A DNA stretch of 64,000 bases from Lingula anatina. Lineage: Eukaryota; Animalia; Brachiopoda. The stretch spans positions 19,296,567-19,360,566 of the forward strand of contig CM120649.1 of the NCBI GenBank assembly GCA_051362555.1. The letters run 5' to 3'. The notes beneath the pieces were generated by a model. That model was not told the origin of the DNA. It saw nothing but the letters and a program-made list of their open reading frames with translations, and searched no databases. Below are positions 62,773 through 63,941 of this stretch, in pieces (position 1 is the stretch's first letter; every line of letters starts with the position of its first letter). A program made the position numbers and the translations under genes.

Positions 62773-63196
62773 CTACTGTGAAGACCCCATCATCAGCTTC
62801 AAATCTTCCTTGGGATGTCGCACGTCGACGGCGGATATCTGGTACTTATCTACCAAGATATCCAGCACAGTGGGCGTGATGAAGGCCGGGAGGACAGGCC
62901 CCAGGCGAATATTCTTCACGCCAAGATGGAGAAGAGAGAGGAGAACAGCGACCGCCTTCTGCTCGAACCAGGACAGGGCGATGGAGAGAGGGAGCGAGTT
63001 GATGTCGGTCTCGAAGGCCCCTGCCAGAGCGTTGGCGACCACCACGGCGCCGTAGCTATCGTTACACTGACCCATGTCCAACAGACGGGGCAGACCTGAA
63101 AGTGATGACCACAACATGTTGGAGTTTATTGGGGAGAAAGGTGTTTATTGTACACTAAGAACAGGTGTGTGTGTGTGTGTGTCAGAGAGAGAGAGA

Positions 63197-63232
<36 letters not shown>

Positions 63233-63941
63233 ACCTGTTGTCCCCAGCGTCCCCAGCTCCTTACGGTTAAAGCGGAATTTGGCACATCCCATGGTGAGGA
63301 CCACGGTCTCTGGCGGCAAGCTGTCCACCAGAGTGGCGAAGTAGTTCCGCTTGTGTTCGGCGCCGTCACAACCACCAACCACGAATATGCGTTTCAATTC
63401 GCCTGATTTCACTGCTTCAATAACCTATTTGAATAGAACAGCCGGTCGGTGACGGTTTAAACTGCATAAAACCAGCAAGAAATTCAACTTGCGAATATAT
63501 CAATCCAAATATGAGAAAACGTTCAACATTTGACAACGGGTACTTCGTACGACGGAAAAAACCAGCATTCCCATCGCAGAACAAACTCAAACAAAAGTGC
63601 CATTTTAAAAAATGGAGAGCCTGACCATCCCCTACCTTGTCTGCGTTGTCTAACAGGACATCTCTGCCAAATCCCACACTCAGGAACTGCTCTTCCGTCT
63701 TGTCGTCTGCCTCGGGAAACCCTTTCAGCTCATTGGCTAGTTTGATCACGCGGTCCATGTCACGTGTTACGTCGATGTGCTCAACACCTGGCCAACCACA
63801 GTCGTTCAAAGTAAAAAGGCGGTCCTTGTACGATTTCATTGGTTCAATCATACAGTTGGTTGTTATGACAACGGGACCAGGGAATGTCGGGAATTCAAAC
63901 TGCTGAAGCTGCCACGCCCCTCCAAAATGTCCAGCAAGGTG
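62773..63941 (-). CDS. hcp: Hybrid-cluster protein (hydroxylamine/NO reductase, prismane), 3' part; exons 63941-63636, 63424-63235, 63095-62773; gene continues beyond the window
   Basis: Spliced frame [110 protein letters not shown] introns of phase 0 and 1. Confidence 0.92.

Follow-up and report, generated by a model that had tools for sequence, protein, structure and literature searches.

The DNA analysed here, a stretch of 64,000 nucleotides from the brachiopod Lingula anatina (the window), stops inside a minus-strand gene for a hybrid cluster protein (Hcp), which lies tail to tail with an MSL2 gene 3.06 kb away in the window assembly. Three Hcp exons with GT-AG introns splice into an open frame of 272 amino acids carrying the motifs TTNC, GGCDG, GCAK, GQCND, and EQK, and 268 of the 272 residues so encoded match the L. 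anatina protein XP_013419062 (634 aa; LOC106179825; P0001 in our sequence set), which RefSeq labels "uncharacterized". An initial annotation of this DNA had described a C-terminal half of Hcp in three exons with these five ligand motifs, spliceosomal introns, and (GA)n/(GT)n microsatellites in one of the introns, and each of these points is upheld by the following gene model.

58420-59715, plus strand: MSL2 gene, convergent neighbour, given for context (Pfam zf-RING_10 and MSL2-CXC; plus-strand RNA)
61700..62772, minus strand: likely 3' UTR with approximate limits, drawn from the minus-strand coverage of stranded RNA run X15 (AATAAA/ATTAAA at 62634, 62098, and 62055)
62773..63095, minus strand: last Hcp coding exon (323 nt including the stop; GQCND C538, EQK E572/K574)
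63096..63234, minus strand: intron of 139 nt, GT-AG, phase 1 (GTGCTC...TTTCAG; AG and GT microsatellites; junction placed by colinearity with orthologues)
63235..63424, minus strand: Hcp coding exon (190 nt; GGCDG C483, GCAK C511)
63425..63635, minus strand: intron of 211 nt, GT-AG, phase 0 (GTAGGG...TAG; spliced reads in 3 of 4 RNA runs)
63636..63941, minus strand: Hcp coding exon (306 nt; RefSeq residues 363-464; TTNC ligand C392; 96% identity to XP_013419062; RNA depth)
63942..64000, minus strand: last part of the next intron upstream, with its pyrimidine tract and AG

Each exon frame matches Pfam Prismane PF03063 separately (E values of 6e-20, 6e-19, and 5e-36), whilst the N-terminal 362 amino acids, including the [4Fe-4S] motif and a leader, are encoded by earlier exons outside the window. 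The AG microsatellite (24 copies, 63184-63231) and the GT run adjoining it both lie inside the 139-nt intron. Nine donor/acceptor combinations retain all five motifs; the one adopted here is colinear with the Lingula RefSeq protein, and the other eight, which are not, were rejected. An archived Lingula model (P0138) uses an internal donor at 63286 on the minus strand and so skips the 17 residues that follow GC in GCAK, with no read supporting that donor listed in the four RNA runs. Another locus in Lingula (XP_013386148, 397 aa) stops just before the TTNC cysteine and is either a truncated duplicate or a haplotig.

Four of nine available RNA runs carrying the Lingula species label (X12, X13, X15, and X18) were aligned to the window. 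Reads joining 63424 to 63636 number 66, 4, 1, and 0 in the four runs, and the splicing that the initial annotation had proposed to look for in RNA is thus seen for the 211-nt intron in three of them. Hcp exon depth is ~80–90x in X18, 7–10x in X15, and 0–3x in X12 and X13. Hcp first mates from the stranded runs fall on the side opposite to those of MSL2, which places the RNA on the minus strand, and minus-strand depth runs on to ~61,700, consistent with the likely 3' UTR. Hcp is expressed far above MSL2 in X18 and below it in X12 and X13; we do not read these run-to-run differences as induction, as tissues and conditions are not given and there are many mismatches between the reads and the window.

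Other features of the window were recorded alongside. A GT-AG joint at 60377-60757 (plus strand) suggests an intron in the 3' UTR of MSL2, and dispersed MITE-like repeats at 60750-61200 and 61817-61960, between MSL2 and Hcp, draw many RNA reads that match in part only, together with joints on the opposite strand. To the left of MSL2 lie serine carboxypeptidase S28 exons (55070-57379, plus strand; Pfam basis for 56732-57031). Four tandem single-frame sulfotransferase ORFs (1519-2751, 5935-7167, 11435-12667, and 14452-15768, plus strand), 95–99% identical in DNA, represent either a gene array of recent date or a stretch that the assembly has in part over-expanded. Ankyrin-repeat and Death-domain coding sequence at 27508-29147 (plus strand) occupies two ORFs in different frames ~110 bp apart, separated by an intron or a frameshift, and a short-period, coding-like tandem repeat with MLQTPR-type units at 40445-40968, in a 2-kb bin of strong GC skew (0.25), has no Pfam match.

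Full-length P0001 passes the Hcp equivalog models TIGR01703 (651 bits, cut-off 361) and NF003658 (682, cut-off 367), and scores below the cut-off of the CODH model TIGR01702 (38 against 478). When P0001 is aligned to D. vulgaris Hcp, its hybrid-cluster-site residues are H324, E348, C392, C483, C511, C538, E572, and K574, the last six of which lie within the window; these correspond to the ligand set of the hybrid cluster (His, Glu, four Cys of which one is a persulfide, and Glu) and a nearby Lys. The cubane cysteines C70, C73, C82, and C88 are seen in the 98.5%-identical RefSeq protein, the corresponding codons of this haplotype lying outside the window. All 12 cluster-site residues (four cubane Cys and eight at the hybrid-cluster site) are kept in each of the 28 animal-clade rows of our alignment, as is the class I cubane spacing C-X2-C-X8-C-X5-C. 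The persulfide Cys and last Glu of the hybrid cluster are named by Lemaire (PMC10210160), as is the definition of class I used here, namely a cubane motif without the class II insertion and, unlike class III, a full N-terminal helical domain. P0001 aligns to class I chains from residue 68 and to class III from residue 277 only (best stretch), and its residues 68-630 align with both E. coli and D. vulgaris Hcp. Its best solved-structure relatives by sequence are all Hcps, with E. coli 7de4 highest (E = 8e-148). The AlphaFold model of P0001 (pTM 0.83; residues 1-72 below pLDDT 50) has the three-domain Hcp fold, with a TM of 0.87–0.93 by target against class I/II Hcps, and the top 11 Foldseek matches are Hcps (E ≤ 3e-32). 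Judged by sequence, the Lingula gene encodes a class I hybrid cluster protein with intact ligands, and the view of the initial annotation that this is a genuine intron-containing animal Hcp is borne out by gene structure, expression, and family membership.

The class I Hcps of Desulfovibrio vulgaris, D. desulfuricans, and Methanothermococcus (1e2u, 1gn9, and 8cnr) share with Lingula the fold (TM 0.91–0.93 by target), the cubane motif, and all hybrid-cluster residues. The Lingula protein differs from them in being the predicted product of an animal nuclear gene with introns, in its 67-aa leader, and in its 37–38% identity. The E. coli class II Hcp, which works with Hcr (7de4) and is the top-scoring solved relative, has the same active site, however the Lingula protein lacks the four-residue class II insertion in the cubane motif and no linked Hcr is seen within the window. 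In common with the class I proteins, no reductase gene is seen beside Hcp on the side that the window covers, which is the downstream side.

The leader preceding the first cysteine, 67 aa in Lingula, is 57–71 aa long in all 11 named animal Hcps measured, and in these animals Arg, Ser, and Thr abound in it whilst acidic residues are scarce; the first 40 residues of Lingula Hcp hold five Arg, one Lys, and no Asp or Glu. With the leader assessed by charge and hydrophobic moment alone, the net charge of the first 35 residues is +3 to +8 in 11 of 11 named animals, and in nine of the 11 the leader charge exceeds that of 99% of windows of the mature protein, Helobdella and Dreissena being weaker. Five named protist Hcps carry a leader of like kind, and three bacterial rows of the alignment begin at the Cys motif without one. 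The animal leader looks by composition like a mitochondrial presequence, and import of the protein into the mitochondrial matrix by this Arg-rich segment is likely. The check for a targeting peptide suggested by the initial annotation gave an Arg-rich, mitochondrial-type leader by composition, taken from the RefSeq protein beyond the window and so missed by that annotation.

A search with the full Lingula protein, in which the best 120 of 8000 scored sequences were taken together with cluster look-ups, gave named orthologues in at least 17 species and 13 genera of brachiopods (Lingula), annelids (Owenia, Helobdella, Lamellibrachia, and Ridgeia), and bivalves (Solemya, Sinanodonta, Potamilus, five Mytilus, Dreissena, Mactra, Mercenaria, and Mya). 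No named member from sponges, cnidarians, deuterostomes, ecdysozoans, gastropods, cephalopods, oysters, or scallops occurs among the best 120 of 8000, an absence that is not firm because 15 sequences of the clade carry no species name. The named hosts are burrowers, valve-closers, or vent and seep worms, a correlation that is uncorrected for shared ancestry. Among the matches listed, the named eukaryotes that come after the animals are Fabomonas, Gefionella, and three organisms that established classification counts as unicellular kin of animals, Salpingoeca punica, Pigoraptor chileana, and Amoebidium parasiticum. The Hcps of these three carry leaders. Identity to Lingula Hcp among the matches listed is 48–52% for bacterial and 49–51% for protist sequences.

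Earlier reports touch on this distribution in passing. A clam genome paper gives the family one sentence, as an antioxidant, recording it in Manila clam and its absence from oyster, snail, and octopus (PMC5499747), and a 2007 study of Riftia plume obtained an Hcp cDNA (EF648468) that was suspected of being bacterial contamination (PMC2175520); both are likened to Lingula Hcp by description. Andersson (2006) found the gene, among eukaryotes, only in microbial ones (PMC1484493), and Lemaire (2023) speaks of "a few unicellular eukaryotes" beside prokaryotes in the part of that paper cited here (PMC10210160). Bivalve and tubeworm copies carry the names "hydroxylamine reductase(-like)" or "hcp" in RefSeq/GenBank, names that are automatic, and these proteins fall in the same animal clade as Lingula Hcp. 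Our literature search found no study of an animal Hcp; the main reviews (van Lis 2020 and Hagen 2022) lie outside that search and may mention animals. The initial annotation left it uncertain whether similar genes were already annotated elsewhere and held that widespread, characterised metazoan orthologues would make this one routine: copies are indeed annotated and widespread in three phyla, however we found none characterised and no functional study. As far as we found, this is a known family, annotated but apparently unexamined in lophotrochozoans.

In a FastTree analysis of 289 sequences, a 28-row animal clade is recovered at 1.0 among leader-bearing eukaryote-type rows. Forty-six of these sequences (nine named animals, five named protists, 13 further leader-bearing rows, and 19 prokaryotes) were analysed with IQ-TREE under LG+C20+F+G4, the 19 prokaryotes being drawn from 68 usable loci in two of 64 parts of a genome collection and hence a small sample. 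The animal clade is supported at 97/91, rising to 100/99 with P0035, and bivalves are monophyletic at 99/94; the 27 eukaryote-type rows stand apart from the 19 prokaryotes at 98/89. P0035, a transcript-sized contig, thus falls with or sister to the lophotrochozoan clade. Amoebidium is sister to animals at 84/83 only; the rows of the choanoflagellate and the filasterean branch elsewhere in this unconstrained tree. In an LG+G4 tree with 25 added distant representatives, animals and P0035 group at 100 inside the named-protist set (82), Amoebidium is no longer sister, and one Clostridium row splits from the other 18 prokaryotes; as that row left the prokaryote side under the simpler model, eukaryote monophyly is not robust. 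An animal clade nested among prokaryotes is not seen in any of the three trees, in which prokaryote sampling is limited and deep branches are unstable. The trees so point to a single origin of lophotrochozoan Hcp from a eukaryote-type Hcp, in which descent with loss and transfer from a protist are not separable by topology.

We lean, by a little, towards vertical descent of the animal gene from single-celled ancestors with many losses; the gene must then have disappeared from sponges, cnidarians, deuterostomes, and ecdysozoans, as well as from many molluscs. Hcp has been placed among the anaerobe-type mitochondrial proteins of LECA in work with Lingula and Helobdella in its 673-species input set, though not in its 203-species figure set (PMC13777428), and the Lingula protein may belong to the Hcp orthogroup of that study. 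A possible but less probable explanation is that the same mitochondrial enzyme was gained once, leader included, by the annelid-mollusc-brachiopod ancestor from a microbial eukaryote. All 17 named animal species being lophotrochozoan (in the best 120 of 8000 and cluster look-ups), the long stem of the animal clade (0.32) with a sister group lacking support, and the preference of Andersson et al. for transfers among protist Hcps (PMC1484493) would fit such a gain; the presence of leader-bearing Hcps in three unicellular holozoans, among the closest non-animal matches listed, counts against it, as do the proposed LECA mitochondrial ancestry (PMC13777428) and an AU test in which monophyly of the named holozoans is not rejected (p = 0.35), a result that is no proof of a clade.

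Bacterial Hcp is described as a high-affinity NO reductase producing N2O, with reduction of hydroxylamine and peroxide judged to be side reactions, whilst the function of the family is still debated, with peroxidase and S-nitrosylase roles among the proposals (PMC10210160). The closest functional models for the Lingula protein are the organelle-targeted eukaryotic Hcps of Chlamydomonas (HCP2; PMC8003979) and Acanthamoeba castellanii, the latter mitochondrial by microscopy, among the proteins most induced in hypoxia and anoxia, and hypothesised to remove NO (PMC13632651); these hosts possess hydrogenase/PFOR anaerobic pathways, and their Hcps are likened to that of Lingula by description rather than by name in our trees. 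In hypoxic gills of the clam Arctica, NO is stabilised and inhibits cytochrome c oxidase (PMC7205294).

By analogy with these systems, the leader would direct Hcp into the mitochondrial matrix, where the mitochondrial ISC machinery would load its clusters. Electrons from NAD(P)H would pass through a general carrier, for example mitochondrial ferredoxin, to the N-terminal [4Fe-4S] cluster and on to the hybrid cluster, which would couple two molecules of NO to N2O; we regard this route and chemistry as reasonably probable. No dedicated reductase is known for class I Hcps (PMC10210160), and fused Hcps from other branches of the family give a hint of possible donors, the self-sufficient ones pointing to NAD(P)H-flavin. 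All seven ~1,200-aa proteins scanned contain a flavodoxin and FAD-binding (diflavin reductase-like) module, and two others contain cytochrome b5; in the LG+G4 tree the flavin-type fusions form one clade (99) and no fusion falls inside the animal clade. The fusion proteins recorded (P0339, P0340, P0343, P0344, P0346, P0357, P0368, P0334, P0358, and P0364) join Hcp either to flavin modules (diflavin reductase-like or flavodoxin) or to cytochrome b5 (plus b5-reductase), and a Cyanophora Hcp fused to "sulfite reductase" has been reported (PMC8003979). The purpose of the enzyme would be hypoxic clearance of NO, which would otherwise accumulate and block cytochrome c oxidase once oxygen-dependent NO removal fails, with retention in burrowing, shell-closing, and vent lophotrochozoans and loss elsewhere.

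The main job of the animal enzyme might instead be S-nitrosylation, peroxidase activity, or hydroxylamine reduction, for example in anoxia-reoxygenation signalling, which we consider unlikely. For other members of the family such activities have been reported or suggested (PMC10210160), the clam genome paper took the family as antioxidant (PMC5499747), and Hcp is transcribed in all four RNA runs, whose oxygen status is not given. However, the kinetics with hydroxylamine and peroxide are judged unphysiological (PMC10210160), and the active-site residues are unchanged relative to NO-reducing bacterial enzymes. The initial annotation had suggested an NO/hydroxylamine-reducing system; as the reaction with hydroxylamine is held to be secondary (PMC10210160), NO reduction is the likelier of the two.

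An ancient transfer from an anaerobic bacterium into the lophotrochozoan ancestor, with introns and leader acquired later, appears distinctly improbable. Bacterial identities are close to those of protists, and the prokaryote sample is small (19 rows), with one Clostridium row shifting in the LG+G4 tree; against this, each of the three trees puts animals with eukaryote-type rows that bear leaders, and forcing them onto a proteobacteria-rich clade is rejected (AU p = 0.0026, a test that covers one bacterial group, picked after the tree was seen). Ancient retention is favoured over bacterial transfer because the animal clade sits among protist Hcps, including those of the three unicellular animal relatives. 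Where the initial annotation had offered ancient horizontal transfer or patchy retention, it is patchy retention that fits better than transfer from bacteria, given the protist grouping and the two AU results.

Contamination or a chimeric assembly, with the gene belonging to a protist or bacterial associate as was suspected for the Riftia cDNA (PMC2175520), is very improbable and largely refuted, as orthologues lie on contigs of 36–211 Mb in eight animal assemblies, which excludes it as a general explanation, the bivalve sequences are monophyletic, removal of a spliceosomal intron is seen in poly(A) RNA that carries this species label, and nine DNA runs from three studies, one of which may be the source sample, contain 49–70% of the words of the 58–64 kb region. 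Genomic copies in two related tubeworms, Lamellibrachia and Ridgeia, suggest by analogy that the Riftia cDNA was the host's.

Taken as a whole, the reading that we narrowly favour is of an expressed animal class I Hcp that is likely mitochondrial, likely reduces NO to N2O at low oxygen, and was probably inherited in these animals and lost elsewhere. We propose, more tentatively and from sequence comparison, that bivalves, annelids, and brachiopods may have kept a pre-animal mitochondrial anaerobic NO reductase, that they may make N2O themselves, and that Hcp could act as an off-switch of NO-driven metabolic depression. If this is true, part of the N2O that mussels and clams emit, now credited to microbes of their gut and shell, would be host-made, the formation of NO/N2O from nitrite in these animals being discussed as bacterial in the source cited (PMC6411825). 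Hcp would also be a named candidate for oxygen-independent NO removal in hypoxia-tolerant invertebrates, for which Mytilus and Dreissena are easily obtained. The pattern of presence in clam and absence from oyster, snail, and octopus reported in the clam genome paper (PMC5499747) offers a natural comparison within molluscs. An intact, leader-bearing, expressed clade in three phyla would place a hybrid-cluster enzyme in the mitochondria of animals, and is relevant to the question of a facultatively anaerobic life of early mitochondria (PMC13777428).
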